A stretch of 64,000 bases of DNA from a bacterium (GCA_037137535.1 JBAXKC010000001.1:256001-320000); one strand, 5' to 3'; positions 12,141-50,150 are shown, counted from the stretch's first letter. Numbers and translations are program-made. Notes: generated by a model not told the origin, from the sequence alone.

Positions 12141-13805
12141 ATGAGTTTAAAACTGAAAAGTTTAATTTTTATACTGTCTCTATTGATTTCACCTATTTTA
12201 ATATATTTTATTGACTTAAACTTTATTAAAGGTGGATTTACAGGCTGTTGGCTATTTGTCGCTTTAATTATTAGTATTTTCTTTTACACCTACATATATA
12301 AATTCTATCTAGAACCAATTGAGGAAAGCATAAAAATTCTTATGAAGATGAAACATGGTGATTTCAGCGGAAGTGAAAATAACTGCCAAAACATGTCTAA
12401 CGGACTAGAACCTTTAAAAACATCTATCAATGAAGTTCGTTTGAATATAAAAGAGCTTGTACAAAAACTTGAAAAAAATGTATCAGGTCTTAATGCATCA
12501 GGTATAAGCCTTGATAATATTGCAAAAACCTCTGCAAATATTGCTAATGAAGTTGCTACAACAGCAGAACAATTAGCAGCAGGAGCTACTAATCAAGTTC
12601 ACAATATTAATAGTTGCAGTCAAAACGTAGATGAAATAACTGAAGCTTCACAACAAATAAGCTCTCAGATTAACGATATAAATAACATTGCAAATGACTT
12701 CTCAAAAATTGCAAATTCAGGTAAATTAGACATTGAAAATGCACTCTCTAAAGTAAATGAAATCAAAGACTCAAGCGAACTTGTGTCTGATCAAATAGTA
12801 AAACTGGGGACTCTTGGTAAAGAGATTGGCGATATTGTAGACTTAATTAACAGTATTGCGAATCAGACAAACCTTCTTGCCTTAAATGCGTCCATTGAAG
12901 CCGCAAGAGCAGGAGAACATGGGAAAGGCTTTGCGGTAGTTGCGGATGAAGTTAAACAGCTTGCAGAAAAATCAGCAGATGCTGCAAATCAAATTAAGGA
13001 TATGGTTAAAAATATTCAATTAGGTGCTGAAAAAGCCGTTGTTCTCACCGATGACAGCTTAAATAAAGTAGAAGCAGGAGTAAAAGCCTTTGCTCTGATT
13101 AATTCAAATTTTGAAAAGATTTATAGCAATTCTCAAATTATTTACAATGAAACTAATCTGATATGCGATGCAATTCTAACACTATCAGAGAAAAATACCG
13201 AGGTTAATACTTCAATGACTAATGTTGCTGGTATTACAGAAGTTAATGCAGCCGCAGCGCAAGAAATATCAGCCTCTACGCAAGAACATTCAATAACAAC
13301 TCAACAGCTTGAATTAACAACAAAAGAAGTCTTAAAAATGGCTCGTAATTTAACTGTAAGCTCTTTTGTTTTTAAAACAGACGATAAACCTGAAATAATG
13401 TTCTGGAACAAGGATTTCTTTTCTAATAACTTAGACATTGATTATGAGCATTATAAAATAGTCAACTATATTAATACTCTATATCAAATGCATCTCGAGA
13501 AAAGACCGGCCAAAGATCTGGTTAAAGTCTCAAATGAATTGGCTGAATTTACCGTCAATCATTTTGCAAATGAAGAACGTATTATGGAAAAGTATAAATA
13601 TCCTGATTTTAATACTCACAAAAAAATCCATAACGATATGTATGCAAAACTTAAAATGTTCGCTGAAGCCTTAAATTCCGGTAAAGCCAACACGAATGAA
13701 GAATTCCTAGAGTTCTTAACACAATGGCTGACTAAACATATATTAAAAGAAGACATAAGAATGGCTTCGTATCTGAGAAGCAAAGGTGTTATCGAATTAA
13801 CTTAA
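12141..13805 (+). CDS. Methyl-accepting chemotaxis protein with C-terminal hemerythrin domain
   Basis: MCP hairpin [33 protein letters not shown]; hemerythrin ligands H, HFANEE, HKKIH and HILKED. Confidence 0.92.
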
Positions 13806-18048: not shown

Positions 18049-19842
18049 ATGGCAAATATAAAGATAACTCCATTAAATATAGAATTAACTGCCTCAGTTG
18101 ATTCTAATTTAATGGAGTTTTTGACATTAAACGGGATAAATCTTAAAAACAATTGCGGATTTAGAGGAAGCTGCAAAAAATGTACCGTCAAGCTATTAAG
18201 CGGTAATTTAAATAATGATGCGCATTATATCGATAATATTTATTTAGCCTGTCAGTCTAAAATATCTGAAGATATTGAAATTGAATTAATTGAATATTCT
18301 TTGGATAAAGCCTTTAAAATAAATAAAAAATTCGACTTTCATTCCAGTTTGACCTGCTTACAGATGGAAAAAATCAATATTAATGTATTGCCACCGTCAA
18401 AAGAAGATAAAACAGCTGATTTTGAAAGAGTTATGGCTTTATTTCCCGATTACTCAATAGCAGGAGTTGAAGTATTAAAAAAATTACCTTTTGCATTAAG
18501 AGAAAACAATTGGAATATTTCAGTAATTAAAGATAATTTCAAAAAACTCATTGTTGATATTGATAAGCCGTCTGATAAACAGATACTGGGGCTTGCTGTA
18601 GACATTGGAACAACTACTGTTAATATCATTATTACAGATTTAACCAACGGAAAAATTATTGATAGTGCCTCCTCTTATAACGAGCAAATTTCATTTGGAA
18701 CAGATGTAATCAGCCGTATTATTTATTCTCAAAGAGAAAAAGGAATTGAAACGCTTAAAGCAGCTGTTGTTTCAACAATAAATAAACTTATAGACGACAT
18801 TTGCCAAAATAATAATTTAATCCCGAGTAATATTTATCAAGCAGTATTTGCGGGAAATACAACGATGATGCATATTTTGCTTGGTATTGTGCCTAATTTT
18901 TTAAGAATAGAACCTTATGTTCCTGCTTTCTTTAATTATAGTCCTGTTGCAAATGAAATAGGAATAAATATAAATAAATATGCCTCAATATATTGTTATG
19001 AAAGTTTTGGCAGTTATGTAGGCGGCGATATTTCTGCGGGAATATTAGCCTCAAGAATGTATAAAAATGATGAAATAAGTCTTTTAATTGATATTGGAAC
19101 AAACGGTGAAATTGTTCTAGGTAATGCCGACTGGCTAATATCTTGTGCATGCAGTGCAGGACCTGCTTTTGAAGGAGCAGGTGTTAAAAACGGATCCAGA
19201 GCAATAAACGGAGCAATTGACAGCGTAAAAATAAACAACAAGTCTTTAGAGCCAGAAATAACAGTAATAAATAAACAAAAACCCATAGGAATCTGCGGAT
19301 CGGGAATGATTGATGCAATTGCAGAATTATTCAAAGCGGGTATTATTGACAGACAAGGTAAATTTATAAAAAATAGCGAACGCATTAAAGATAAATCTTA
19401 TATTCTTGTAAATATTGGAGAAATAGACTCTGACAAAGAAATAGTTATAAGTGAAAGCGATATTCAAAATATAGTCAGAACAAAAGGGGCTATTTTTGCA
19501 GGAATATATTCGCTTTTAGAATATGCCGGAATAACTCTTGACGAGATTTCAAAAATATATGTGGCAGGCGGACTTGGCGAAAGCATAGACTTTAAAAATG
19601 CTGTTGCTATTGGTCTTTTTCCTGATATTGATCGTAATAAATATGAATACCTGGGAAATACCTCATTAAAAGGGTGTTACCTACGTCTTATTAATTATAA
19701 AGAAGAACAAGATATTAAAAAAATATCCGAAATAATGAATTATTTTGACATATCAGAAGATGAAGAATATATGAACAGATTTATAAGTTCGCTTTTTATT
19801 CCTCATACGGATTTGAGCTTATTTCCCAATATTTTTAAATAA
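18049..19842 (+). CDS. RACo/DUF4445 ASKHA ATPase with 2Fe-2S domain (reductive activator of corrinoid proteins)
   Basis: CGFRGSCKKC, AVDIGTTT, IDIGTNGE, CSAGPAFEG, and GICGSG. Confidence 0.9.
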   Translation: MANIKITPLNIELTASVDSNLMEFLTLNGINLKNNCGFRGSCKKCTVKLLSGNLNNDAHYIDNIYLACQSKISEDIEIELIEYSLDKAFKINKKFDFHSSLTCLQMEKININVLPPSKEDKTADFERVMALFPDYSIAGVEVLKKLPFALRENNWNISVIKDNFKKLIVDIDKPSDKQILGLAVDIGTTTVNIIITDLTNGKIIDSASSYNEQISFGTDVISRIIYSQREKGIETLKAAVVSTINKLIDDICQNNNLIPSNIYQAVFAGNTTMMHILLGIVPNFLRIEPYVPAFFNYSPVANEIGININKYASIYCYESFGSYVGGDISAGILASRMYKNDEISLLIDIGTNGEIVLGNADWLISCACSAGPAFEGAGVKNGSRAINGAIDSVKINNKSLEPEITVINKQKPIGICGSGMIDAIAELFKAGIIDRQGKFIKNSERIKDKSYILVNIGEIDSDKEIVISESDIQNIVRTKGAIFAGIYSLLEYAGITLDEISKIYVAGGLGESIDFKNAVAIGLFPDIDRNKYEYLGNTSLKGCYLRLINYKEEQDIKKISEIMNYFDISEDEEYMNRFISSLFIPHTDLSLFPNIFK

Positions 19843-21625: not shown

Positions 21626-22180
21626 ATGGTATTAGCTCATCGTAGTGGTTTTACTGCGTCAAATTTTGGTATGCAAATTGGCTTTGGTTATTATTCAGTA
21701 ATGAAAAAAATTGCAACAAAAGAACATGTTCATTGTGCCTATGGAGGAGAAGAACTTAATGAAGATAATCCTGCAACAGCCGAACATGTAGAACCACATA
21801 GTAAGGGTGGAGCAGATGATGATTCTAATTTTTTACCTGTATGCGAAAAACACAATGGAGAAAGAGGATGTAGATCATATAAAAGATTTTTAAGAGAGAA
21901 ACCAAAAGTCTGGAATAATATAAAAAGAACCATTTTAGAAATAAATAAAATTAAAACTGAGAACTTTGATGGACATGAATGGGCTAAAAAAATTATAAAA
22001 GCAGTTGAAATCCAATCAAAACAAAAACTTAACATTGATATTGATAATGAAGAAAATAATATATTAAATAAAGAGGAAGACCATTCTGAAACGGAATACG
22101 ATTTAGATAAGACATTAATTACTACATCAGGTAAAAAAATATATATAAAACGTGAAAAGCCTTTAGATCTATTTGCTTAA
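21626..22180 (+). CDS. HNH-fold endonuclease-like protein
   Basis: TAEHVEPHSKGG...SNFLPVCEKHNGERG. Confidence 0.8.
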   Translation: MVLAHRSGFTASNFGMQIGFGYYSVMKKIATKEHVHCAYGGEELNEDNPATAEHVEPHSKGGADDDSNFLPVCEKHNGERGCRSYKRFLREKPKVWNNIKRTILEINKIKTENFDGHEWAKKIIKAVEIQSKQKLNIDIDNEENNILNKEEDHSETEYDLDKTLITTSGKKIYIKREKPLDLFA

Positions 22181-22776: not shown

Positions 22777-23442
22777 ATGTCTTTATCAAATTACGGTTCT
22801 TTTGGTATGCAAAATTTACACGCTCAAATTGGTTTTGGCTATAACTCAACAATGAAACACGTTGCAACAAAAGAACATGTACATTGCGCTTATGGCGGAG
22901 AAGAGCTTACTAGCGGACATCCTGCAACAGCAGAACATGTAAAAACTCACTCTTCAGGTGGAGCAAACAGCGACTCTAACTTCTTACCAGTATGTCAAGA
23001 ACACAATGGAGAAAGAGCAAGCATTCCATTTCCTAAATTTCTTGCTACTCATCCAAAGGCATGGAATAACATTAAACAAACCATTCTTGAACTAAATGAT
23101 GTAAAAACATCTGACTTTGATGGACATAAATGGGCTCAAAATATTGTTAAAGTTGTTGAAAAAGAATCAGGCCGTCACATGGACATCACGCTGGGAGATG
23201 ATGATGAAGTGACAACAAGAGATTATTCCTCAGAAATAAAAGACTCTTCTGATAATGAAGAAATCGATAAAACTTTAACAACGAGAACAGGTAAAAAAAT
23301 ATATATTGGTCAAAATAAACCACTAGATATTATTGAAAATGGTGAAACAGAAACGGAGCCGGAAATCGATAAAACTTTAACAACCAGATCAGGCAAAAAA
23401 ATATATATTGGAGAAAATAAACCTATAAACTTCTTCGCATAA
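22777..23442 (+). CDS. HNH-fold endonuclease-like protein (paralog) with duplicated C-terminal module
   Basis: TAEHVKTHSSGG...SNFLPVCQEHNGER; EIDKTLTTRxGKKIYIG occurs twice (102-nt period, 23260 and 23362). Confidence 0.8.
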   Translation: MSLSNYGSFGMQNLHAQIGFGYNSTMKHVATKEHVHCAYGGEELTSGHPATAEHVKTHSSGGANSDSNFLPVCQEHNGERASIPFPKFLATHPKAWNNIKQTILELNDVKTSDFDGHKWAQNIVKVVEKESGRHMDITLGDDDEVTTRDYSSEIKDSSDNEEIDKTLTTRTGKKIYIGQNKPLDIIENGETETEPEIDKTLTTRSGKKIYIGENKPINFFA

Positions 23443-23479: not shown

Positions 23480-24163
23480 ATGTTCAATGCAATTGGACAC
23501 TCGACACAAACAAATATGTTGAGTTTTCAAGCGAGAAAAAAGCACGAAAAGCCACCATTAGATAGAGAACACACAGTCGCAATTCTTGGAACGGGAAAGG
23601 ATCTTGAAACTACTGAAAAATATACACAAATGGCCTATGAAGTTGCAAATAAACTTGCTAAAGACGGTTATAATGTTGTAACAGGAGGTGGTGACGGAAT
23701 TATGTCCGCTGCCAACAAAGGAGCAACCGATGCCGATGCTAAAAAAAGTTTTTCAATTATGGTCAAATACTGGCCAAATAAAATAGGTCAAAAATTTTTT
23801 AACGTTCTAAGCACAGTAATGAGTGGTCCAAAAAGAACTGATATGTTCGCAAAAGATGCAGGAACTTGGATAGTCTTCCCAGGCGGCACAGGAACTCTTG
23901 AAGAAATTGGAGTTGGAACAGAATCCAAATACTATGGTCATAAAGATGATAGAGTAGCACATCCTGATAAAATCATTATGGTTGATCGAGAATTCCAAAA
24001 ACCGCTTAAAGCCTATATTAATGGAATGCAGGAAATGGGATTAGCTCCTTTACCTCAAAATTCTGAAAAAGAAACACTCTTTGAAGAATTATTTGAAGAA
24101 GCTGATACTTCAAAAGAAATAGTTGATAAAGTAGAAAACAAAAAATTATCAACTATTACGTAG
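23480..24163 (+). CDS. LOG/SLOG family protein
   Basis: VVTGGGDGIMSAANKGA and FPGGTGTLEEI. Confidence 0.85.
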   Translation: MFNAIGHSTQTNMLSFQARKKHEKPPLDREHTVAILGTGKDLETTEKYTQMAYEVANKLAKDGYNVVTGGGDGIMSAANKGATDADAKKSFSIMVKYWPNKIGQKFFNVLSTVMSGPKRTDMFAKDAGTWIVFPGGTGTLEEIGVGTESKYYGHKDDRVAHPDKIIMVDREFQKPLKAYINGMQEMGLAPLPQNSEKETLFEELFEEADTSKEIVDKVENKKLSTIT

Positions 24164-25397: not shown

Positions 25398-27056
25398 TTA
25401 AAATTTAAATTTTAATCCTGCTTGAGCCGAATAATCACCGTTGTCTAAAACATATGATAAGTTAGCATATGGATTTAATCCGTTATCTTTATTTCCTGAT
25501 AATTCAAGATCAAATTGTGGTGTTACGTTGCGTCCTGACTCAAGAGGTATATTTACAGCTACTCCCGCATTAACATTCACATCAGGAATACTTAAGTTAG
25601 GATATTTTGCTCTGTCCTCAACAGGAATACCAAAAGCATTATTATTGTAGAAAGCTCCTGCTCTTACATAAGGGGTATTACTAAATCCTGTTGTTTGACC
25701 TATAACTCCAAGATCTTTTGAAATTTGAGAACCATCATTAAATTTAGCAACTAAAGAACCTGATGTTTGAGTGTTATAAGGGTTATTTAAATTCAAACCA
25801 AGCCCTAATCCTAATCCATATCTTTCATTAGTAGTCGGATTGTTTTTATCGTCAAAAAGTTTATTTCCAATGTTTAAATTTGCTTGTAAAACTGCTTCAC
25901 CTCTTGCAGGAGTTGTATCCACAGATAAACCTGTTCCAATTGAGCCATCATTATTTAGCTTTTCAGTTCTAAATGAAATAGCAGGATCTGTTGGCAATAA
26001 TTGATTATTTGTTGAAAGTCCTAATCCTGTATTAACTATAATTCCTTCTTTTGTTTTTGGATCAACAGGTGCGTTTGTTAGGGTGCTTGCGACAGGAGAA
26101 CCAAGCCTTTTATTTGAAGTAACTAAACTTATTTGAGGCTGTTCCGGAGGAGTAGGTTTATCTTCGGGCTTTGTAGGCTCTACCGGTTTAGGATCTACGG
26201 GTTTTGTTGCGTCTGGAGTATCATAAGAACTGCTTAAGAGTTCCATTACGTTTTGATTTGTAATTTCTTTTCCATTTACATTTCCACAAAAATTCCAATG
26301 TCCAAAAGCTTCATCTTTTAATACTTGGACAGAATCACCATTTGGCATAAAGATAGCATACATTGTTTCATTATCTCTTTTTATTCTTGCTCCGTTAGGG
26401 AAAGATATTTCTTGCCCCGGCTGAATATCTTTACCATCAACCTTTAATGTATTTGAGCCTTCATTTATTTGAATATTATTTCCGCCGATTTTTATATTGC
26501 CGCTTGTTATGCCTTCATTTCCATTTGGCAATTTTCTTACGTTTACATCGATTGAATAATCTTTATCGCCTAAGTTTTCAGCATTAGCATCATGGTTTAC
26601 AAAATTTGTAGGCTTATTTAGAGTTGATACATCTGAAACTAGACCTGTTGCATCATTATTTCCTTTTACGGTCAAAAGATTTAAATTTTCATATAATCCT
26701 TTTGGAATATCAACAGTAGTCTTGTCATGAGTTGCATTAGGGTCGCTACCTGATCCCCAGAAGAAACCCGGTAACTTTGTTGTTGTAGGCTGAGAGACTG
26801 ACTTTATATCTGTACTAAAATGTCTTGCTGCATTTGCAGCTTCTACTGTTTTTTCAAAATCCGCAAAACCACTTTTAAAATCAGTGCTATTCATCAAGTT
26901 CTCTAAAGAATTTGCAGGAATATTAATACCATCCTTTTTCCAGATACTTGCCTGATCAGCCACAGCCTTTTTCTCAGCTCCGGGAACAAGTCCGGTGTTT
27001 AAAGTTACAGGTGCCTTACCTACGAGCTGACTAGCCTGATTAATGAATTCTCCCAT
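25398..27056 (-). CDS. Hypothetical protein: passenger-like N-domain, Pro-rich linker and beta-barrel-like C-terminus
   Basis: ATG 27056 has an AAGGAG RBS; linker PVDPKPVEPTKPEDKPTPPEQP; amphipathic strands ending YSAQAGLKFKF. Confidence 0.65.
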   Translation of the reverse strand: MGEFINQASQLVGKAPVTLNTGLVPGAEKKAVADQASIWKKDGINIPANSLENLMNSTDFKSGFADFEKTVEAANAARHFSTDIKSVSQPTTTKLPGFFWGSGSDPNATHDKTTVDIPKGLYENLNLLTVKGNNDATGLVSDVSTLNKPTNFVNHDANAENLGDKDYSIDVNVRKLPNGNEGITSGNIKIGGNNIQINEGSNTLKVDGKDIQPGQEISFPNGARIKRDNETMYAIFMPNGDSVQVLKDEAFGHWNFCGNVNGKEITNQNVMELLSSSYDTPDATKPVDPKPVEPTKPEDKPTPPEQPQISLVTSNKRLGSPVASTLTNAPVDPKTKEGIIVNTGLGLSTNNQLLPTDPAISFRTEKLNNDGSIGTGLSVDTTPARGEAVLQANLNIGNKLFDDKNNPTTNERYGLGLGLGLNLNNPYNTQTSGSLVAKFNDGSQISKDLGVIGQTTGFSNTPYVRAGAFYNNNAFGIPVEDRAKYPNLSIPDVNVNAGVAVNIPLESGRNVTPQFDLELSGNKDNGLNPYANLSYVLDNGDYSAQAGLKFKF

Positions 27057-27622
27057 CTTAATACTCCTTTTATAAATTTTACATTTTAAATATTTCGTAT
27101 ATATTTCGTATATATTTATAAAAACATTTCGCATGAAAAAATTGCCTGTTAAAAGCCAATATTCATGTTTTTACCATAATTTTTATAAGAAAATACTACT
27201 AAACACTTTAATTACAGACCATTTGACAAATCTAAAGTTTTGTAACATTTGCTTGCGAATTATTAATTTTTTAGTCAAATAAAGAAATACCTCTTTATTG
27301 TTTGTTTTTTTATAATAAAGCATTAAAATTTAATTAAAATCAAACAATTAATTAAGTTTTAATCTATTTCAATAACCTTAGAGATTAAAATTCAGTTTAA
27401 AAACAAAAAAATAATGCTCTATCAATTAAGAACATATTTTATTCCCCAAAATATATTTATTTTATTTAATCTAAGAATTGACCAATGACAATAAATTCTC
27501 TATAATGAGATATATAGTTGAATCTACATGAATCAAACAAAAGAAATCACAATAAAATCACCATAACATCAGAAACTGACTTTCAAAAATTGTAATATTG
27601 TAAAAAAATAGGGCTGGATTGT

Positions 27623-28507
27623 TTGAAAATTAAAAATAAAAAATTATATTTTAAGACTGGCTTAACTCTTGTAGAGTCTTTATTTGTTATGGTAATAATG
27701 AGTACAGTTTTAATATCCAGTATTCCTATTTTTGCCAATAAAAAAATACTTAGAACAGACACTCCAAATATTGGAATTGTGGCAATTTGGGCAAACCCCG
27801 GAGCCATTCCTTCAAACTTTCTTGAATGTAACGGACAAGCATATAACGTAGCTGACTATCCTGATTTATTCAACATTATTGGAACGTCCTACGGTGGAGC
27901 AGGCTCAACTTTTAATGTCCCAAACTTACAGGGAAGAACTGCAATAGGAGCAGGAACTGGAGCTGGACTTACAAATAAAGTATATCAAACAACAGTAGGC
28001 TCTGAGGAAGAAAGTCTTACATTAGCTCAACTTCCAAACCATGTTCATATCTTTAACGACCCTGGACACAAACACTGGGACTCAGGACATGCTCATGGAA
28101 CAAGCGACCCTGGACACAAACACTGGGACTACGGACATTCTCACACTTTATGGGATGGCTGGCACAGTCATTATTATAGAGATGTTTATTATTCTGAGTT
28201 TGGCTCAACTCCTGTCCCATGGGACATAGGAACAAATGCCAGAAGTGATTATGACAATAAAGGTCTTGAAATTCGCAGAAATACAAACTGGACCGGCTCG
28301 AATATCGGAATATATAATGGTTATGCAAATGTATCCTATCAAAGTAGCAATCTTGCCGCTTCTACTAATAACGGTAATGCTTCCATTCAATCAGCTCTAA
28401 GCAATGTAACCGTACCTGTAAGCGGTGGAAGTGGAACTGCAACAGGAAATCCTCATGAAAATATGCTTCCTTTTAGAGCTTTAAGATATATTATTAGAGC
28501 AAAATAA
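27623..28507 (+). CDS. Type IV prepilin N-terminus fused to phage tail-collar / HxH fibre domain (copy 1)
   Basis: G|LTLVE...P22; collar FLECNGQAY...YPDLFNIIGTSYGG...FNVPNLQGR; six HxH motifs; C-terminal HENMLPFRALRYIIRA. Confidence 0.88.
   Translation: MKIKNKKLYFKTGLTLVESLFVMVIMSTVLISSIPIFANKKILRTDTPNIGIVAIWANPGAIPSNFLECNGQAYNVADYPDLFNIIGTSYGGAGSTFNVPNLQGRTAIGAGTGAGLTNKVYQTTVGSEEESLTLAQLPNHVHIFNDPGHKHWDSGHAHGTSDPGHKHWDYGHSHTLWDGWHSHYYRDVYYSEFGSTPVPWDIGTNARSDYDNKGLEIRRNTNWTGSNIGIYNGYANVSYQSSNLAASTNNGNASIQSALSNVTVPVSGGSGTATGNPHENMLPFRALRYIIRAK
28057..28130 (+). repeat. Intragenic 26-bp direct repeat, 48-bp period
   Basis: CGACCCTGGACACAAACACTGGGACT at 28057 and 28105, encoding DPGHKHWD twice. 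Confidence 0.9.
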
Positions 28508-28548
28508 TAACTGATTAATAATTACGTTTCATAAGAAAAGAGGCTGGA

Positions 28549-29526
28549 TTGACAAGAAATCTTAATACTAAAAAATCACTTAAATTTCCAAGAAATGGTT
28601 TAACTATTTCAGAAGTATTAGTTGTTATGGTTTTATTTGGTGTTATTGCTGTTTCTTCTATACCTGCTTTTACTTCTAATGAAACTCAAAACAGAGATTT
28701 AATAGCAAGTATTGGAAGTATTATGCTATGGGCAGGTAATGGAAATCCTCCGCCTAATTTTGTTGAATGTAATGGACAATCACTCAACAAAGCTGATTAT
28801 CCACTATTATTTGGTGTTATCGGAAATACCTACGGTTCTACAGCAACAAAATTCAACGTTCCTGACATAAGAGGCAGAGCCGTAATAGGGGCAGGACAGG
28901 GAACAGACCCAAGTCCCTATTCAGGAGTAAGCCCAAACCTGACTCTTAGAAATTTTAAAGATATAGGCGGAACTGAAACTGTCACTCTTACAGCCGCTGA
29001 TTTGCCTAATCATGCTCATGGAGTAACAGATCCCGGACATACTCATTCAGATGCGGGGCATGCCCATTCGGTTGCAGACTATGGACATTCTCATGTTGAT
29101 TGGGGGCATGTTCACTCAGTATGGGATGGCGGACATTCTCATTACTATGATGATATTTATTATGCAGAAAGTATGGGTTATGCTAAATGGATATCAGGTG
29201 GTGGAGCAAATCCACATGGATATAATCACCCAAGCCCTAACGGACCTTTTGTTGGTAATGGACAAGGAGATTGGACAGACTTTGACAATGGCGGACATGA
29301 TATGGGACGTTGGACAAATGCTTCACCTTCGAATTTAGCTCTTTATCCAGGCTATGCAAACCTTACCTATAATGGAACAAATGTAACCTTTGGGACAGGC
29401 TATGCTAATCTTACCTCTAATTCGGCAAACCTCACAATAGTTCCCAGCGGAGGAAGTAATCCGGTTACTCCGCATAATAATTTGTCAGCTGCTCTTGTAT
29501 TAAAATATGTAATTAAAGCCCGATAA
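28549..29526 (+). CDS. Type IV prepilin N-terminus fused to phage tail-collar / HxH fibre domain (copy 2)
   Basis: G|LTISE..G14..P22; FVECNGQSL...YPLLFGVIGNTYG...FNVPDIRGR; six HxH motifs; HNNL...LKYVIKAR. Confidence 0.88.
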   Translation: MTRNLNTKKSLKFPRNGLTISEVLVVMVLFGVIAVSSIPAFTSNETQNRDLIASIGSIMLWAGNGNPPPNFVECNGQSLNKADYPLLFGVIGNTYGSTATKFNVPDIRGRAVIGAGQGTDPSPYSGVSPNLTLRNFKDIGGTETVTLTAADLPNHAHGVTDPGHTHSDAGHAHSVADYGHSHVDWGHVHSVWDGGHSHYYDDIYYAESMGYAKWISGGGANPHGYNHPSPNGPFVGNGQGDWTDFDNGGHDMGRWTNASPSNLALYPGYANLTYNGTNVTFGTGYANLTSNSANLTIVPSGGSNPVTPHNNLSAALVLKYVIKAR

Positions 29527-29556
29527 AACATAATACGCTTATAGAAAGAGGACAGG

Positions 29557-30447
29557 ATGTTAAATTCTTTAAAAATTAAAAATAAGAATAAAAGATTTGG
29601 ACTATCTCTTACAGAAGCGTTAGTTGTTTTAATGGTTGCAGGTGTTGCAGTTGCTGCCTCTATGCCAACAATGTCGGTAAAGACATTACTTAAAACTAAT
29701 TCAGATGTAAGTATAGGTGCTATTGTAATATGGGCAAACAATGGAGCTATTCCTGCTAATTACCTTGAATGTAACGGCCAAACCGTAAACAAAGCAGATT
29801 ATATAAACTTATACAGTATTATTAGCGGTACTTATGGACAAACGGCAACTCAATTCAATGTTCCCGATTTAAGAGGCAGGACTGTTATTGGAATGGGAAA
29901 AATAAGTGCCTTGAGCAAACAACGTAATTTTAATGATGTGGGTGGTAAAGAAAAAGTAAGACTTATTGATACAAATTTACCTGCTCATTCCCATATAGTT
30001 AACGACCCGGGTCATACTCATGCAGACCTCGGGCATACTCATCCTGTTTATGATCCGGGGCATAAACACTGGGATTATGGTCATAGCCATGGAGTATGGG
30101 ATGGTGGACATAGCCATGAATATGGCGATATATATTTTTCAGAATCATGGGGCTGGGTTCCGACACCTGATGGTTTTGGACACTGTGCTAAAAGCGATAA
30201 TGACAACTATGGTTTTCAAATGGGACGCTATACTGATCTAGCCACAAGTAATATTGGTGTTTATCCTGGTAATGCAAATTTCACAACAGAACATACAGGT
30301 GTTTCAGCTGCTACAGGTACGGCAAATCTTGGCAATTCAGTCACAGGTGTTAACTTAAACGCACCTGCAACAGGTGGCGACGATAATAATCTTCATGAAA
30401 ATATGCCGCCGTTTTACACATTGAGATATATCATTAGAGCAAGATAA
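29557..30447 (+). CDS. Type IV prepilin N-terminus fused to phage tail-collar / HxH fibre domain (copy 3)
   Basis: G|LSLTE..G14..P22; YLECNGQTV...FNVPDLRGR; six HxH motifs; HENMPPFYTLRYIIRAR. Confidence 0.88.
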   Translation: MLNSLKIKNKNKRFGLSLTEALVVLMVAGVAVAASMPTMSVKTLLKTNSDVSIGAIVIWANNGAIPANYLECNGQTVNKADYINLYSIISGTYGQTATQFNVPDLRGRTVIGMGKISALSKQRNFNDVGGKEKVRLIDTNLPAHSHIVNDPGHTHADLGHTHPVYDPGHKHWDYGHSHGVWDGGHSHEYGDIYFSESWGWVPTPDGFGHCAKSDNDNYGFQMGRYTDLATSNIGVYPGNANFTTEHTGVSAATGTANLGNSVTGVNLNAPATGGDDNNLHENMPPFYTLRYIIRAR

Positions 30448-30471
30448 CTAATTTTTTATATTAAATATATT

Positions 30472-30508
30472 AAAAGAGCTGTTAAACTTAAAAATTAACA
30501 GCTCTTTT
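30472..30508. terminator. Bidirectional intrinsic terminator
   Basis: AAAAGAGCTGTTAA...TTAACAGCTCTTTT closes the three-gene operon. Confidence 0.75.
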
Positions 30509-30532
30509 TGATAAATAATATAATAATGCCTT

Positions 30533-31126
30533 TTAATGCTTTTCCAACTCATTTTTTATAGCCTTTAACGTTGTAGGCAAGGTGTTGTTAAGCCCATAAG
30601 AACGTAAAAAAGACGGTAAATAGAAACCAAGATCAATATACATTGTATAGGTTAATATAGAATTACCCTGATACGGTTCGATTTCCCAAGATCCGTATAA
30701 TTCTTTAAAAGAACCTTCAGTTCTTTTATATATAATTGTTTTAGTTCTTTCATTTTCATCTAAATGCAATGTATATTGAAATACGGGTAAAGCAGGAGCT
30801 GTTTTAAGTGAAACCTGCACCTTTTGGAAATTATGTCCTTTTGCAAGAATTTTATTTTGACGAACCCCAGGGACTATTCGCCCCATTCTTTCCTGATTTT
30901 CAAGTAAAGCCCATACTTTTTCAGGTGATGAATGAATTAATACTTTTCCTTCAGTTCCTTTTAAATCACCCTTGCAATTAAAAAATCTTAAAGCGACTTC
31001 ACCCTTTTGCAATCTTGTAATATTTTCTATTGCCATTGCTTTATTTGGAAATTGCATTGAGAAAATCAAGGATGGGATAATAATAAGACTCATAAGTCCG
31101 TAATGTAGTTTGAGTTTTGTATTCAT
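30533..31126 (-). CDS. SRPBCC/START (cyclase/dehydrase) family protein with signal-like N-terminus
   Basis: IHSSPEKVWALL...EGSFKELYGSWEIEP...LTY. Confidence 0.8.
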   Translation of the reverse strand: MNTKLKLHYGLMSLIIIPSLIFSMQFPNKAMAIENITRLQKGEVALRFFNCKGDLKGTEGKVLIHSSPEKVWALLENQERMGRIVPGVRQNKILAKGHNFQKVQVSLKTAPALPVFQYTLHLDENERTKTIIYKRTEGSFKELYGSWEIEPYQGNSILTYTMYIDLGFYLPSFLRSYGLNNTLPTTLKAIKNELEKH

Positions 31127-40430: not shown

Positions 40431-41573
40431 CTATGGGCTCTTTATGTTTAATAAAACTAAATTCTTAATATAATTATCTTGTGACTTTTCAGCATATTTA
40501 ACAGATTTTTCATCTATTTTTGCACCAGAATTTATAAGACATTCAACAATTTCTGCTTGCTTTGTTTTTATAGCATAAGTTAAAGCAGTCTTCCCCCAAT
40601 ATATTACATTAGGATCAGCACCTTTATTAATTAATAATTCTGCTATTTCAGACTGTTTATTAATAATAGCCCAAATTAATGGATAAGTCCCCACCGATTT
40701 TTGATTAGGATTAGCACCGGCCTCAATTAACATTTCTGCTATTTCGGATTGTTTATTCTTAATTGCTAGGGTTAAAAAATATGGCCCCCAATCTTGTTGA
40801 TTAGGATTAGCGCCTGCTTTTAATAAAACATCAACCATTCTAAGATTATTTGCTTTTATTGCCATTCCAAGTAATGAATTAAAACCATAAGTGTCATTTG
40901 GATTCATTCCTGTTTTCATATAAGCTTCAACTAAATCAACATCATTATTTTGAACACAATTAACAATATCTATGTCTTTATATTTGGCATGCTGATAATC
41001 GACGAGACTTTGATAATATTTATCATCTTTTACAATATTAGCAGCAGAGGACTTGATTGTTTTCAAATGATCATTAACTAAAAACTGAAACGCCACAAGA
41101 GGATTTATGTATATCTTTGATAAAAATAATACTCTTGTCGTATCTTTGGCACCGATTAAATAATTAGACGGAAACGGCTGAAATAATTTATCAAGAGCAA
41201 TAACCTTTCCTTCTAGATAAGCAAATGATACCGCGTTTATAAGCAAATCATTTGGGCTATTATAAAACATAAGAGTTGATGTTGTCACCTTATTTATTCT
41301 ATCAGGAGCCGTCATTTCTTTTAATATAATAGGCTTTCCAGTTTTGTTTGTTATTAGATACTCATATATAGCAGCCTTCTTATCTTGAATCATTCCGAAG
41401 CCAGGCTCATATTTATTGCTAGTAATTTTTATGTTATTGTCTTCAAATTCAAGTACAGTATTACCAATTGCTGTATTTGATATAGGTTTTTCATATGACT
41501 GAAAGCTACTTTGAGCGAAAGATGGGCTAGATAATACAACAACAGCAATAAAGACTAAAAATAATTTTTTCAT
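40431..41573 (-). CDS. Secreted ankyrin-repeat protein
   Basis: Signal peptide; repeated LxxAI...SEIAExLIxxGAxPN units. Confidence 0.88.
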   Translation of the reverse strand: MKKLFLVFIAVVVLSSPSFAQSSFQSYEKPISNTAIGNTVLEFEDNNIKITSNKYEPGFGMIQDKKAAIYEYLITNKTGKPIILKEMTAPDRINKVTTSTLMFYNSPNDLLINAVSFAYLEGKVIALDKLFQPFPSNYLIGAKDTTRVLFLSKIYINPLVAFQFLVNDHLKTIKSSAANIVKDDKYYQSLVDYQHAKYKDIDIVNCVQNNDVDLVEAYMKTGMNPNDTYGFNSLLGMAIKANNLRMVDVLLKAGANPNQQDWGPYFLTLAIKNKQSEIAEMLIEAGANPNQKSVGTYPLIWAIINKQSEIAELLINKGADPNVIYWGKTALTYAIKTKQAEIVECLINSGAKIDEKSVKYAEKSQDNYIKNLVLLNIKSP

Positions 41574-44073: not shown

Positions 44074-45393
44074 TTATCTTACACTCATACCTTCGTTAAG
44101 ATATTTAATTAGAGGATAGATAAAGAACTCAATAATTCTACGTTTTCCTGTTTTAATTTCGGCGGTAAGACTCATACCGGAGGAAATACCCATTCTTTTT
44201 CCTTCAACTTTAAATTCTTTTTTCTCAGGAACGATATAAACCTCATAAACAGGGCCTAATGTCTTATCATCAATACTATCTTTTGCTATTTGAGTAACTT
44301 TTCCACCTAAAAGGCCATATTTTTGGAAGTCAAAAGTATCAACTTTAATACTTACGTCCATGTTTTTACGAATAAACCCTATATCCTTGTTTAAAACAGT
44401 TGCTTTAATTAATAAAGGTGAATTACTGGGATACATTGAGATTAATTTCTGTGCAGGTGTTACAACACCGCCTTTTGTATGAACAAAAAGCTCATTAATA
44501 TAACCATCATCAGGAGCAGTAAGAACTTGTTTTTTATTTCTATATGCAGATTGATCTAATTGAGCTTTTAACTGAATCGATTGTTTTGTCTTATCTGCAA
44601 GTTCTTTTAATAACTCCGAACGGAAATTTTGACGAAGATAGCCCATTTCTTGAACAATTTGTCTTTTTTGCTGACTTAATTCCGATACTTTATAATTTGA
44701 ACTTTGTATATTTGCCGTATTAGTTGTAATCTCATCAGCAACCTTGTCATAATCATCTTTAGGAATAATATCAATAATCGGCTTTAATCGTTTTTCTTTT
44801 GAACTGGCCGTCCCTAAAAGTTTTCTATATTGATATTTTTGAGAAACAGCAGTTCTTATTTGCTCGTCTGTTTTACTTAATTCAGTATGTTTAGCGGCAA
44901 GTTGACTGCTTATACTTTCCCTTAAGGAGTTATAAACATCTTCCTGTTCGATAATATCATTTAAATCATATTTTTTAAATGATGGAGTAAATGCTCTACC
45001 CTCTGTAAGTGCTTTTAGTCTTTCAATTTCAAGAGAGATATATTTGTAGCTTTTTTCAAGCGATGTAAGTTCTGTTTTTGTTGTAGAAGGATCAATATCA
45101 ATAACAGGTTGACCTTTTTTTACAAAATCGCCTTCTCTTACATGAATAGTTCCAACTACACCTGAATCAAGCGGCTGTATTACCTTTATTTCACCGTCAG
45201 GAATTACTTTACCTCTGGCACTAACAACAATATCAATTTGCCCTACAGACGTCCAGATTATAAAGAAAAATATTATAGTTACAACAATCCAAAAGACAAA
45301 ACGACCTAATGGACTGACGGGTTCATCCTCTATTTCAGCAATAGCGGGTTTGAATTGATAGCTGTCATCTTTTGAAAAGATTTTTTTTAACAT
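44074..45393 (-). CDS. Type I secretion membrane fusion protein (HlyD family)
   Basis: One TM helix, IDIVVSARGK, coiled coil, and GMSLTAEIKTGKRRIIEF. Confidence 0.93.
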   Translation of the reverse strand: MLKKIFSKDDSYQFKPAIAEIEDEPVSPLGRFVFWIVVTIIFFFIIWTSVGQIDIVVSARGKVIPDGEIKVIQPLDSGVVGTIHVREGDFVKKGQPVIDIDPSTTKTELTSLEKSYKYISLEIERLKALTEGRAFTPSFKKYDLNDIIEQEDVYNSLRESISSQLAAKHTELSKTDEQIRTAVSQKYQYRKLLGTASSKEKRLKPIIDIIPKDDYDKVADEITTNTANIQSSNYKVSELSQQKRQIVQEMGYLRQNFRSELLKELADKTKQSIQLKAQLDQSAYRNKKQVLTAPDDGYINELFVHTKGGVVTPAQKLISMYPSNSPLLIKATVLNKDIGFIRKNMDVSIKVDTFDFQKYGLLGGKVTQIAKDSIDDKTLGPVYEVYIVPEKKEFKVEGKRMGISSGMSLTAEIKTGKRRIIEFFIYPLIKYLNEGMSVR

Positions 45394-47495
45394 TCATCGC
45401 TCTCCTGCTGGGTATAAAGATGATGGTAATAACCTTGGGCTTTCAGTAACTCATCATGAGAACCAGCTTCTATAATTTTACCTTTATCCATTGCGATAAT
45501 AATATCACAATCTTTGACGGTAAACAGTCTATGCGCAATTATCAGAGTAGTTCTACCTTTTTTAATTCGGCTCATATTATTTTGAATAATTTTTTCAGAT
45601 TCATAATCCAGTGCTGAGGTTGCCTCATCAAAAATCAATATCTTAGGGTTAGTAATAATAGCTCTTGCAATTGCAACTCTTTGACGTTGTCCACCGGAAA
45701 GAGTTGAACCTCTTTCTCCTACAAGTGTATCATATCCTTCAGGCAATTGCGAAATAAACTCATGAGCTCCTGCGATTCTTGCAGCCTCAATAATTACTTC
45801 CATAGGTGCTCCCGGACGAGCTAATGAAATATTTTCTCTTATAGTTCCGCTGAACAGGTAATTATCTTGTAACACAATTCCCATGTTATTTCTTAACCAT
45901 AAAGGGTTCATATGCTTAATATCTACGTCGTCAACATAGATAGCACCTTCATTTGTAAGATAAAGTCTTTGAATTAACTTAGTAACAGTACTTTTACCGC
46001 TACCACTTCTTCCTACAAGACCAACGGACATACCGGGCTGTACGGTAAAGCAAACTCTATCAAGGATATAAGGGGAACTCATATTGTATTTAAAACATAC
46101 ATTATCAAAACGAATGGATCCCTTAACATCATGGAGGGTAATTGCTTTATCCGTTTGAATTTCCACAGGGTTATTTAAAATATCACCAAGTCTATCAACT
46201 GCAAGTAACGTTTGTTGAAATTCATTCCATAAGTTTACAAGCCTTAAAACAGGGTTAGTAAACTGATTCGCAAACATTTGAAATGCGATTAACTGACCGA
46301 TTGTTAATTTATTCTCGATAACAAGCCTTACACCTATGTAAAGTACGAAAATAGTCATTAATTTTTGCAATCCACTTGAAGTAGCACCTGTTACAGTTGC
46401 CATATTAGAAAGATTGAAACTTGATCTTACATAGTTTGAAAGATAATCTTCCCATTTCTTTTGCATAGTTCCTTCTATGGATAGAGATTTAATGGTTTGA
46501 ATACCTGTTACAGACTCAACAAGATAAGAATTTGATTGAGCTGCCATTTGAAACTTATCATTAAGTCTTTTTCTAAGTTCAGGTGTAATAGTTACATAAA
46601 TTACAGCGACCATAGAAATAAATGCTAATACGATAAATGTAAGTTTAACGCTGTACAAGAACATTACCGCAACAAAAACAAGTGAGAAAAATAAATCAAT
46701 AATTAGAGAAACTGACTTGTTTGTAATAAATTCCCTGATAGAATCAAGCTCTCGAACTCTTGCGATAATATTTCCTACTTTTCTGTTTTCAAAATATACA
46801 AATGGAAGCGAGAATAAGTGCTTGAAAAGTTTTGCTCCTAATTTCGCATCAATTTTATTTGAAGTATGTATGAAAATATAATTTCTGGAAAGATTTAATA
46901 GGAATTCAAAAACGGTTACAGCAACGAAAGCAACTGCAAGCACATCAAGTGTTGTCAAACTGCGATGTACAATAACTTTATCGAGAATTACCTGAGTGAA
47001 CAATGGTGTTATAAGTCCAAAAAGCTGAACAATAAAAGAACCTAACAATACTTCAGCTATAACTGTTTTATAGCGCATAATTTCATTATAAAACCAGATG
47101 AAACCAAAAGTGATCTTAGCTTGATTAACCTTTGGCTTTAATATAATAAAACGACCAGAACCTTCTTCGGCTAAAGCTTGAAAGGTTAACTCTTTTGATA
47201 TTCTTTCAATAGTGTCAAAAATAAGAACCTTTTTATGCTCACTATTCAAACTTAAAATAATTTTATAATTTTTTTCTTTAGTTATATAAATAGCAGGTAA
47301 TGGATATTTTTCCAGCTGTTCCATAGTAATAGATTTGAACTTAGCTTTAAATCCATTATTTTGCATTATTCTAAGTAAATCGTAGTCAAGAATCTCGTTT
47401 TCATTTAAGCCATATTCTTTTATAATGGCTTGAATGTCGACATCAATTTGATTTATTCTTGCAACAACTTCAAAAGCTATTAGCCCAGTTTGCAT
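45387..47495 (-). CDS. Type I secretion ABC transporter (HlyB family, C39-like domain)
   Basis: LITPLFTQVILDKV, GRSGSGKST, LSGGQRQR, and DEATSALD. Confidence 0.95.
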   Translation of the reverse strand: MQTGLIAFEVVARINQIDVDIQAIIKEYGLNENEILDYDLLRIMQNNGFKAKFKSITMEQLEKYPLPAIYITKEKNYKIILSLNSEHKKVLIFDTIERISKELTFQALAEEGSGRFIILKPKVNQAKITFGFIWFYNEIMRYKTVIAEVLLGSFIVQLFGLITPLFTQVILDKVIVHRSLTTLDVLAVAFVAVTVFEFLLNLSRNYIFIHTSNKIDAKLGAKLFKHLFSLPFVYFENRKVGNIIARVRELDSIREFITNKSVSLIIDLFFSLVFVAVMFLYSVKLTFIVLAFISMVAVIYVTITPELRKRLNDKFQMAAQSNSYLVESVTGIQTIKSLSIEGTMQKKWEDYLSNYVRSSFNLSNMATVTGATSSGLQKLMTIFVLYIGVRLVIENKLTIGQLIAFQMFANQFTNPVLRLVNLWNEFQQTLLAVDRLGDILNNPVEIQTDKAITLHDVKGSIRFDNVCFKYNMSSPYILDRVCFTVQPGMSVGLVGRSGSGKSTVTKLIQRLYLTNEGAIYVDDVDIKHMNPLWLRNNMGIVLQDNYLFSGTIRENISLARPGAPMEVIIEAARIAGAHEFISQLPEGYDTLVGERGSTLSGGQRQRVAIARAIITNPKILIFDEATSALDYESEKIIQNNMSRIKKGRTTLIIAHRLFTVKDCDIIIAMDKGKIIEAGSHDELLKAQGYYHHLYTQQESDEC

Positions 47496-47590
47496 CTTTT
47501 ACCCTTTAAATAACTTGTAGTAGATAGATTATAGCTATAAATTTGTTTTTTGCAAATCAACCTACAAGAGGAGTTATTTACAAAATTAAT

Positions 47591-49115: not shown

Positions 49116-50150
49116 TTAAGTTGAGAATAACAAAAGAGAATAAGTTTCTATTATTGCTTTACCAAAAAACATTGCTATTATTGCCCCAAAAACAAGAGCC
49201 GGCCCGAATGGCAAAAATGTAAAACTTTGACGTTTTTTTGCTCCTTCAATAATGACTATTGCACCAATACCCGCAAGGAATAAAGCCACTAACATTGTTA
49301 ATAACGCACCGATAGTAGTATTTGAAATACCCAGTAATTTACTTAAAGAAGGAATAGCAAGAGAAAATAACATTAACGAGGTATAAGCAATTGATTTATA
49401 ATCTTTATCCTTATACATATTAATTACAATGATTGGAATACCGACTATAACCTGAAAAATCAAGCTCAATGCAACAATTAAAAATAATTGTTTAACTCCA
49501 AACCAAGCACCAAGTCCTGCCGCTAAAACAGTATCACCTTCGCCAAATGCTCTTTCTCCGACAAATATTTTTCCCAGTCTGGAAATAACTTCAAATAAAG
49601 CCGCTCCGACTATTGCTCCTAAAACTGAATAAAGAAAGGCTTCTGGCATAAATCCAAATACTGGAACACCAATAGATCCAGAACCATACCCTCCGATGTC
49701 AAAGAAACTATAAAGCAAACCCAATGGGATTAATGGAATTGATACAGCATCATAAATCAACTGTTCTTTTAAATCGGTAACTGTAATTACAATTAATCCT
49801 GCGGTAAGAATCATTAAGAATAAGGTTTTTAATGACATTCCAAAACTGAGGTATAAAAGTATAAATAATAAACAGGAAGCACCTTCAACCAATGGATACT
49901 GTATACTAATTTTTGCTTTACAATGCCTGCATTTAGCTTTCAAAAGAATATAGCTTAATATTGGGACATTATCATACCATGCAATTTTAGTATGACATTT
50001 AGGACATTCTGATCTTGGCCTCGCCATGCTTTCACCTGATAAAAGCCTTAATGCTACAACATTTAAGAAACTTCCGATTATTAAACCTAAAAAACCGGCA
50101 ACAAAAACGAAATAGGATTGGCTAAAAATATTAAAAACTTCTTCTGTCAA
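49116..50150 (-). CDS. pilD: Prepilin peptidase / N-methyltransferase (A24)
   Basis: GSFLNVV...RSECPKC...WYDNVPILSY...CRHC...YPLVE; GEGD; PFGPAL. Confidence 0.93.
   Translation of the reverse strand: MTEEVFNIFSQSYFVFVAGFLGLIIGSFLNVVALRLLSGESMARPRSECPKCHTKIAWYDNVPILSYILLKAKCRHCKAKISIQYPLVEGASCLLFILLYLSFGMSLKTLFLMILTAGLIVITVTDLKEQLIYDAVSIPLIPLGLLYSFFDIGGYGSGSIGVPVFGFMPEAFLYSVLGAIVGAALFEVISRLGKIFVGERAFGEGDTVLAAGLGAWFGVKQLFLIVALSLIFQVIVGIPIIVINMYKDKDYKSIAYTSLMLFSLAIPSLSKLLGISNTTIGALLTMLVALFLAGIGAIVIIEGAKKRQSFTFLPFGPALVFGAIIAMFFGKAIIETYSLLLFST

Follow-up and report, generated by a model that had tools for sequence, protein, structure and literature searches.

Candidate stem-only modular pilins with phage-type fibre tips encoded by a three-gene bacterial operon

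Three tandem genes with a common fibre module

The window analysed here is a 64,000-nucleotide stretch of bacterial DNA (GCA_037137535.1, JBAXKC010000001.1:256001-320000), in which three tandem open reading frames (ORFs) called ORF1, ORF2 and ORF3 occupy positions 27,623 to 30,447 (Table 1). Each encoded protein is built from a class III-type signal, an alpha1-N stem of roughly 25 residues, a linker of roughly 15 residues and a tip made of a collar, a needle and a head. As judged from their sequences, the fusions encoded by these neighbouring genes most likely give a pilus-like filament a phage-style adhesive end. An earlier reading of the same DNA (the original prediction) had described the proteins as chimeras of type IV pilins and phage tail fibres.

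The three genes form one operon. Gaps of 41 bp (ORF1 to ORF2) and 30 bp (ORF2 to ORF3) separate them, and AAGAGG-type Shine-Dalgarno sites precede ORF2 and ORF3. Upstream of ORF1 lies an AT-rich gap of 488 bp. The promoter listed in Table 1 is a candidate only, since the region contains 21 promoter-like sites compared with 17.5 (standard deviation 3.9) in shuffled sequences, which is no excess. A hairpin terminator is located between ORF3 and a convergent SRPBCC-like gene (30533-31126, minus strand); it was overlooked by a simple pattern scan and was revealed by folding positions 30448-30520. The GC content of the locus is mildly raised (0.38 versus about 0.31). Shufflon-type rearrangement or phase variation was ruled out, as the interval 27100-30600 has no long inverted or identical direct repeats, and the only repeats present are the 48-nt needle period and diverged matches between the paralogues.

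Table 1 Features of the fibre operon and of the prepilin peptidase gene in the window
Feature	Position	Strand	Details
Candidate sigma-70-type promoter	27478..27506	+	TTGACC, 17-nt spacer, TATAAT; 11 of 12 consensus positions; about 115 bp 5' of ORF1
ORF1, 294 amino acids (aa)	27623..28507	+	Start TTG; class III-type signal, Collar, HxH needle, variable head, C-terminal strand
ORF1 leader (aa 1-13) and alpha1-N stem	27623..27736	+	Leu+1, Glu5, Pro22; N_methyl 13.2 bits (cut-off 21.2)
ORF1 Collar domain (aa 51-106)	27773..27940	+	PF07484, E 2.3e-17
ORF1 needle	28040..28171	+	Six HxH motifs, 16-aa (48-nt) period
ORF2, 325 aa	28549..29526	+	Start TTG; architecture as ORF1, with inserts
ORF2 leader (aa 1-17) and alpha1-N stem	28549..28674	+	Leu+1, Glu5, Gly14, Pro22; TIGR02532 17.4 (cut-off 16.3)
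ORF2 Collar domain (aa 56-111)	28714..28881	+	PF07484, E 2.5e-18
ORF2 needle	29011..29142	+	Six HxH motifs
ORF3, 296 aa	29557..30447	+	Start ATG; architecture as ORF1
ORF3 leader (aa 1-15) and alpha1-N stem	29557..29676	+	Leu+1, Glu5, Gly14, Pro22; AlphaFold2 helix aa 18-35
ORF3 Collar domain (aa 54-110)	29716..29886	+	PF07484, E 3.3e-17; model pLDDT (predicted local distance difference test) >90
ORF3 needle	29986..30117	+	Six HxH motifs
Bidirectional hairpin terminator	30468..30513	.	18 pairs and T-run; -17.3 kcal/mol; z = -4.6 versus shuffles (fold of 30448-30520)
Prepilin peptidase (PilD/GspO type)	49116..50150	-	A24_N_bact E 1.5e-32, Peptidase_A24 E 8.2e-14

The proteins are 44-48% identical over their whole length and 47-51% identical in the fibre parts alone. 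Their Collar domains score 63.2, 66.2 and 62.6 bits (ORF1, ORF2 and ORF3, respectively) against a cut-off of 24, and the HxH motifs of the needle follow the same 9-7-9-7-9 spacing in all three. The region after the needle is poorly conserved (36-43% identity), whereas the C-terminal strand is conserved and carries an H-x-N...L-x-Y-x-I motif in each protein. Compared with its neighbours, ORF2 has an extra 10-aa insert after the Collar domain and inserts of 15 and 4 aa in the variable head.

This module resembles the receptor-binding tips of phage fibres. ORF1, ORF2 and ORF3 match 15, 18 and 20 PHROG tail-fibre or tail-collar families. A profile made from the three proteins and an outside relative, P0055 (251 aa, 37-41% identical overall to ORF1-ORF3 and of the same compact build), matches gp34, which forms the long tail fibre in cyanophage A-1(L) (8kec), over residues 54-178 and 238-297 with an E-value of 5.8e-11 among PDB sequences, and T4 gp12 with an E-value of about 1e-10. 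An AlphaFold2 model of ORF3 built from a 110-sequence alignment has a pLDDT of 72.9 overall, with the collar and the last 17 residues above 90 and the middle below 55; an alignment of the three paralogues alone gave an unusable model (pLDDT 29.7). Foldseek searches with the ORF3 model recover 8kec, T4 gp12 (1ocy), the T4 gp37 tip (2xgf) and the JUB59 prophage fibre tip (6ov6) at template-modelling scores (TM-scores) of 0.23-0.34, low values that are expected when a monomer model is compared with a trimeric fibre. A search of BFVD with the same model yields 100 viral proteins at E<=1e-3, and the named matches among the 50 listed are tail-collar, tail-fibre or related virion proteins. By homology, the fibre part thus belongs with the collar-needle-head tips through which trimeric phage fibres, such as A-1(L) gp34, T4 gp12 and gp37, bind receptors.

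The related phage fibres are trimers with metal-binding HxH pairs, and a length of 180 A is given for the arm domain of A-1(L) gp34. By analogy only, the HxH motifs of ORF1-ORF3 may bind metal as well. The same analogy suggests that the variable middle region forms a distal ligand-binding head from which the C-terminus returns to the collar.

A probable prepilin-type signal at the N-terminus

The N-terminal leader of each protein contains five Lys or Arg residues and ends in Gly. Leu at position +1, Glu at position 5 and Pro at position 22 are common to ORF1-ORF3, and position 14 is Ser, Gly and Gly, respectively. The hydrophobic stretch after the predicted cleavage site spans about 20 residues, and all 16 residues following Glu5 are hydrophobic or small. 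These features agree with the class III signal as defined in a 2023 review, in which a hydrophilic leader ending in Gly or Ala precedes 20-25 hydrophobic residues, often with Glu5 (PMC10191384). A six-frame pattern scan of the whole window for this signal produces four matches, three of which are ORF1-ORF3; the fourth, within a P-II gene, is missing the hydrophobic tract (9 of 16 residues rather than 16 of 16).

Comparison with P0055 reveals which positions are held constant. Gly-1, Glu5, Leu7, Val9 and Pro22 are invariant across ORF1-ORF3 and P0055, while identity among the four is 28-48% over the remainder of the stem and 0-27% in the linker. Moreover, P0055 clears both curated prepilin models, with 21.4 bits for N_methyl (cut-off 21.2) and 18.4 for TIGR02532 (cut-off 16.3).

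When the N-termini are searched alone against the PDB, a type IV pilin is the top match in all three cases, all of them weak (E 0.0075-0.26). All seven matches of ORF2 aa 1-55 at E<=10 are type IV pilins, and Geobacter PilA-N (Geopilin domain 1) is the best match of both ORF1 aa 1-50 (E 0.26) and ORF3 aa 1-53 (E 0.14). The four-protein profile also matches PilA-N, with an E-value of 0.007 among 177,635 PDB sequences. In contrast, the remaining exported ORFs of the window carry ordinary short signals for the general secretion (Sec) pathway, without the Glu. Because of the conservation in P0055, the pilin matches in the PDB, the difference from the Sec signals nearby and the fit to the published definition, the N-termini are best read as a class III (prepilin) signal.

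Other leader types were also considered. A double-glycine leader for a C39 exporter is out, since a single Gly precedes the cut; a twin-arginine leader is out, as ORF1-ORF3 do not have the motif; and a lipoprotein leader is out, as they have no lipobox Cys.

The Collar domain begins at residue 51, 56 or 54, about 16 residues past Pro22, which leaves no space for a globular pilin head. The AlphaFold2 model of ORF3 shows the same arrangement, with a helix, a low-confidence linker and then the Collar domain. The description as chimeras therefore holds insofar as a prepilin-type N-terminus is joined to a fibre module, although the pilin contribution consists only of the leader and alpha1-N stem and does not extend to a head. 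The sequence features listed by the original prediction were found as described, including the basic leaders with a class III signal, Glu5 and Pro22 in all three proteins and Gly14 in two, the Collar domain, HxH shaft and C-terminal motif, and the terminator that closes the operon; the structure prediction it had proposed likewise led to phage fibre tips. Its assignment of the signals to the type IVa class is not supported by the data. Classic type IVa pilins have a short leader and Phe at +1, a pattern that leaders of 13-17 aa followed by Leu+1 do not fit. Leader length itself, according to the 2023 review, does not discriminate among pilin types (PMC10191384).

The N-termini could instead be ordinary Sec signals or uncleaved anchors, which would make the products periplasmic, envelope-bound or exported Collar proteins of the kind named MdpB, with no link to a filament. 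Borderline scores with prepilin hidden Markov models (HMMs) are in keeping with this view, as is the failure of a Pfam scan of the window to find pilus assembly genes nearby, and Pro22 with the small residues after it could serve as the c-region of a Sec signal. Two further Collar proteins, P0018 and P0214, begin with an Arg-rich N-terminus and continue into a plain transmembrane segment; the module has apparently become anchored in membranes by more than one route. Yet four of four proteins have a Glu five residues past an invariant Gly, and the hydrophobic tract around it, at about 20 residues, exceeds in length the Sec signals carried by other ORFs of the window. Furthermore, the would-be -1 residue is Thr in two of the four proteins, and Thr at this position is disfavoured by signal peptidase I. 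The pilin matches of the N-termini and the scores of P0055 also speak for a prepilin signal, and we regard the Sec or anchor explanation as unlikely.

Chromosomal setting and relatives

A Pfam scan of 48 other ORFs in the window (39 with hits) was combined with a PHROGs scan of 13 neighbouring or otherwise unassigned ORFs. Capsid, portal, terminase, sheath, baseplate and integrase genes are absent from the 48 Pfam-scanned ORFs, and no phage structural family was found by PHROGs among the 13, four of which matched (two HNH, one DprA-like and one of unknown function). The Pfam-matched neighbours are housekeeping, regulatory, envelope and transport genes, and the setting is thus chromosomal. The sole mobile-element-like signals near the locus are HNH-endonuclease-like ORFs at 21626-22180 and 22777-23442 (both plus strand), followed by a SLOG/DprA-like ORF at 23480-24163.

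Both A24 domains were detected in the product of the prepilin peptidase gene (Table 1), whereas no NCBIfam equivalog was found for it at E<0.01. A gene for a SigF/SigB-type group-3 sigma factor (50174-50980, minus strand; NF005644, 215 bits against a cut-off of 261) is located 23 bp upstream on the same strand. SigF controls pilus formation in Synechocystis. Directly downstream of the peptidase gene, positions 44074-48901 (minus strand) encode a TolC-like protein, an ABC exporter with an N-terminal C39 peptidase and an HlyD-type adaptor. This exporter cluster is of the bacteriocin or peptide type, and the fibre proteins have no double-glycine leader.

The presence of LptF/G and the TolC-like protein in the window indicates a diderm envelope. 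For the Tex protein, identity is 79-82% to unnamed metagenome proteins, 68-69% to those of Candidatus Melainabacteria or Gastranaerophilales and at most 63% to those of other phyla, and on this basis the host, an uncultured bacterium, is placed in Melainabacteria. The one cultured member of this group encodes a complete type IV pilus set, as reported in PMC4451040.

Several other genes in the window were noted. Divergent from the fibre operon is an ORF of 578 aa (25398-27134, minus strand) that has no Pfam, NCBIfam or PHROG match and ends in an aromatic residue. Its structural matches in the ESM Atlas are outer-membrane beta-barrels, all with TM-scores below 0.5 when normalized by the query, and the product may be an outer-membrane protein. 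Farther away are a methyl-accepting chemotaxis protein with a C-terminal hemerythrin domain (12141-13805, plus strand), a RACo-type corrinoid activation protein (18049-19842, plus strand) and an ankyrin-repeat protein (40431-41573, minus strand).

The fibre module belongs to a family with 54,389 cluster representatives at E<=1e-3, many of them proteins of cellular genomes that carry the label 'microcystin-dependent protein' or 'phage tail protein'. Matching phage records number 353, all below 60% identity and at 27-31% in the 20 rows listed. A prepilin-type N-terminus is present in three of the best 147 representatives from outside the window, namely P0055, P0107 and P0171. The latter two (896 and 712 aa) are canonical pilins with GFT-type signals, N_methyl scores above the cut-off, a fibronectin type III domain and three Collar modules. 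Among 116 other Collar proteins listed, 115 are without such an N-terminus, the exception being P0055. In the ESM Atlas, a cluster of 75 members combines Collar (100%) with N_methyl (99%) at a query score of 0.89, and a cluster of 51 members combines Gp10_C with N_methyl at a query score of 0.79; kinship of either cluster to the query is a lead only.

Fusions of this general kind are also on record in the literature. The mapping of the InterPro numbers in the published census of modular pilins to the Collar and N_methyl names fits the Pfam matches of P0107 and P0171 and the PilV-Collar fusion described below. The census (Raynaud et al. 2021, PMC8179133, Dataset S1) comprises 1,219 proteins in 264 architectures, two of which have a Collar entry; among the 1,219, the P0107/P0171-type architecture occurs once and a PilV-Collar architecture once. 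The bare combination 'IPR012902 - IPR011083', which under this mapping joins N_methyl and Collar alone, is not in that list. A PilV-Collar fusion (UCP91044.1) lies among pilus genes and was likened to the variation of Mu tail fibres (Milman et al. 2023, PMC9881135). No functional study of a pilin-tail-fibre fusion was found in the literature, in which this 2023 shufflon paper alone surfaced. Pilins with a Collar module are thus a recurring theme for which no functional study was found. New in this locus are the reduction of the pilin to a bare stem, the arrangement of three such genes in tandem and the occurrence in Melainabacteria. The pilin-Collar fusion itself was already on record.

We also searched for related loci directly. 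One scan of GTDB genome contigs with two narrow peptide patterns found 14 Collar loci, the window's own genome not being among them. None of these 14 loci has more than one Collar ORF. A tblastn search against plasmids revealed no PilV-type fusion, as its 42 records are Collar-only matches. Another non-phage Collar cluster is present on Azospirillum brasilense plasmid p2 (NZ_CP032347.1, locus L015, 3818-5684), where two 'tail fiber protein' genes flank a small hypothetical gene; the neighbours are hydrolase, Ig-like or DUF4347 genes, with no prophage.

These results bear on the wider claims of the original prediction. It was right that capsid, baseplate, sheath and integrase genes are missing nearby and that a pilD gene is present in the window. 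Its proposal that the fibres are domesticated phage modules presupposes a direction of transfer on which the data are silent, as the family is very large and many of its members are cellular. Its statement that no characterised system has this architecture stands for experimental characterisation, though not for existence, since pilin-Collar fusions are on record in Dataset S1, PMC9881135 and the ESM Atlas. Likewise, the survey that it suggested shows that pilin-Collar fusions recur (P0107, P0171 and the Atlas cluster), whereas the compact build was found only in P0055 among the relatives listed.

Proposed assembly and comparison with known systems

The reading towards which we lean, with modest confidence, is that the operon encodes stem-only modular pilins that are processed by a PilD-type peptidase, trimerise through a phage-type receptor-binding tip and join, probably at its tip, a type IV filament encoded elsewhere. 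According to this model, the signal would insert each protein in the inner membrane with its leader in the cytoplasm, where the PilD-type peptidase would cleave after the leader Gly and probably N-methylate Leu+1. The fibre parts would then form parallel trimers in which layers of HxH motifs hold metal ions, as in T4 gp37. The three stems would enter the hydrophobic core of a pilus or pseudopilus, most plausibly at the filament tip following the example of CofB, a tip pilin that is trimeric, and the sequence-variable head (about aa 195-270) would be presented as an adhesin. Display at a pilus tip and recognition of prey or host, both put forward by the original prediction, remain inferences.

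Two kinds of precedent bear on this model. Three-stem tip complexes are known, namely the CofB trimer and the GspIJK heterotrimer, as described in PMC8179133 and PMC10191384. In addition, display of the fibre module by pilins has precedent, because P0107 and P0171, the ESM Atlas cluster, Dataset S1 and the PilV-Collar fusion all combine the two.

Several observations weigh against the model. When N_methyl (PF07963) and Collar (PF07484) were sought in the same protein, as had been suggested beforehand, Collar was above its cut-off in all three proteins and N_methyl below it in all three (13.2, 19.8 and 14.7 bits for ORF1, ORF2 and ORF3). The TIGR02532 scores are 12.2, 17.4 and 9.7, so that ORF1 and ORF3 fail and ORF2 alone exceeds the cut-off. 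Neither the Pfam scan of ORF1-ORF3 nor the AlphaFold2 model of ORF3 revealed a globular pilin head, a part that defines pilins and in which alpha1-C packs on a beta-sheet. The pilD-type gene is 18.7 kb from the fibre operon, in another operon, and the 48 Pfam-scanned ORFs of the 64-kb window include no pilus or type II secretion assembly gene besides it. The compact signal-plus-fibre build is rare, with one relative (P0055) among the best 147 representatives and the 116 further proteins listed, and no prepilin-type N-terminus is found at the 14 GTDB loci. Glu5 is kept in all three ORFs, whereas known tip complexes have a capping subunit without it (PMC10191384). A trimer with three linkers of equal length must still fit a helical filament of staggered subunits. 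Finally, cleavage, methylation, trimerisation and surface display are predictions drawn from sequence.

Some of these points could also be accommodated by a real class III signal in a different structure, such as a short membrane-proximal stub like a pseudopilus, a surface fibre layer or a cargo of a type II secretion-like system. A comparable arrangement is the archaeal 'bindosome', in which sugar-binding proteins bear class III signals. This alternative would explain why no pilin head is available to form a filament surface, why Glu5 is retained in all three proteins and why linkage to pilus genes is missing. Nevertheless, the host is diderm, and an inner-membrane stub with a fibre of about 180 A (a length taken from the A-1(L) gp34 arm) would not clearly reach the outside, and the canonical pilin-Collar fusions P0107 and P0171 argue that filaments bear the module. 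We judge such a stub, layer or cargo to be quite unlikely. A remnant of a prophage, tailocin or contractile injection system with accidental N-termini would account for the PHROG matches and for the 353 phage records (with identities reaching about 31% in the 20 rows listed), but it is highly improbable, given that phage structural, lysis and integration genes were not found among the Pfam- and PHROG-scanned ORFs, that the GC rise is only mild, that 47-51% identity, intact frames and a conserved signal indicate an old and maintained trio, and that the trio and P0055 form their own clade (100/94).

For the preferred model of a trimeric, stem-only pilin, the odds are roughly even between one heterotrimer of ORF1, ORF2 and ORF3 and three homotrimers. 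Hints of a heterotrimer are that there are exactly three tandem genes and that their needles are in identical register. Relatives provide a parallel, as the best 147 representatives, classified with an HMM of our own, include 119 chains with three Collar modules, 6 with six, 11 with two, 3 with four and 3 with five; three or six modules per chain are therefore found in 125 of the 147. Of the 119 chains with three modules, 77 have a first and a second module within 10 residues of each other in length, although module length ranges from 120 to 397 (r = 0.60), and modules within one chain have a median identity of 46% (interquartile range 41-51). Such chains look like single-chain pseudo-trimers. 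ORF1-ORF3 resemble a pseudo-trimer set split over three genes, because they share 47-51% identity and the needle is in identical register. No description of single-chain pseudo-trimeric fibres was met, though no literature search was aimed at such chains.

Their history was assessed with a tree of 88 rows and 190 columns, comprising ORF1-ORF3, P0055, nine hand-picked single-module proteins and, from each of the 25 best triple chains, all three modules. Support is given as ultrafast bootstrap/SH-aLRT (Shimodaira-Hasegawa-like approximate likelihood ratio test), and the bootstrap was not fully settled (correlation 0.939). ORF1-ORF3 form one clade (100/98) with P0055 as sister (100/94), nested among single-module proteins. 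From this position, the trio represents a local, lineage-specific triplication after fusion to the signal, and fission of a single-chain three-module protein is ruled out. In the same tree, the three modules of P0043, of P0044 and of P0070 each form a clade of their own, and single-chain pseudo-trimeric fibres look to have evolved repeatedly.

A more specific proposal is a 1:1:1 heterotrimer whose three stems would act as a priming and capping complex, such that one operon replaces a minor-pilin tip complex together with its adhesin, and the family would have passed repeatedly from homotrimer to three genes to single-chain pseudo-trimer. We consider this proposal doubtful. The lineage-specific triplication argues against a heterotrimer, and so do the 14 other loci, none of which has more than one Collar gene, and the solved relatives, all of which are homotrimers.

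Type IV filaments are thought to gain binding functions by grafting of modules onto pilins. If the preferred model is true, the graft in this case is an obligately trimeric phage tip, which raises the question of how a three-fold fibre joins a helical filament, and the carrier has been cut to a bare stem, which would define the minimum needed to ride the pilus machinery. Melainabacteria, a poorly known, non-photosynthetic sister group of the cyanobacteria, would gain a candidate adhesin, and the nearest relative with a solved structure is a fibre of a cyanophage. Apart from this locus, the best-scoring public relatives are mostly single chains with exactly three fibre modules, which suggests that pseudo-trimeric 'tail fibres' are common in cells and unexplored.

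Among the described proteins most similar in design to ORF1-ORF3 are PilB and PilC of Streptococcus sanguinis, which carry von Willebrand factor A and lectin domains, respectively. As described in PMC8179133, these proteins also graft a binding module that is not pilus-specific onto a class III signal and stem, and tip display has been proposed for them. However, PilB and PilC keep a complete pilin fold, whereas in ORF1-ORF3 the module follows directly after the stem and is the tip of an obligately trimeric fibre, not a monomeric domain. By the features that define modular pilins, ORF1-ORF3 possess a functional module and a linker, with the pilin module cut to signal and stem and with borderline scores for IPR012902-type models.

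CofB (type IVb) and GspI-J-K (type II secretion) resemble the proposed assembly in that three stems are joined through distal domains and bind at the filament tip, although they have their own pilin heads and unrelated distal domains. Type IVb pili are confined to Proteobacteria according to the 2023 review (PMC10191384). The PilV-Collar protein UCP91044.1, P0107 and P0171 likewise unite a prepilin N-terminus and one or more Collar modules in one protein, yet have full pilin or PilV domains, and P0107 and P0171 bear three modules per chain. PilV is varied by inversions, whereas no shufflon-like inverted repeats are present at the fibre operon.

Phage fibre tips (8kec, 1ocy, 2xgf and 6ov6) share with ORF1-ORF3 the Collar domain, HxH needle, head and returning C-terminal strand, at identities of about 20-31%, but phage fibres bear N-terminal shafts that dock to baseplates and are encoded in tail modules. 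Cellular 'microcystin-dependent' (MdpB) proteins contain the same module in non-phage genomes, and the trio's nearest neighbours in the tree are of this single-module kind; among the 116 listed, however, only P0055 has a prepilin-type N-terminus. For the stem, the closest parallel is Geobacter PilA-N (7tgg, 9egp and 2m7g), a pilin reduced to its alpha1 stem, to which the N-termini gave their best PDB matches. The head that accompanies PilA-N is a protein of its own, PilA-C, whereas in ORF1-ORF3 the stem is joined covalently to a fibre.

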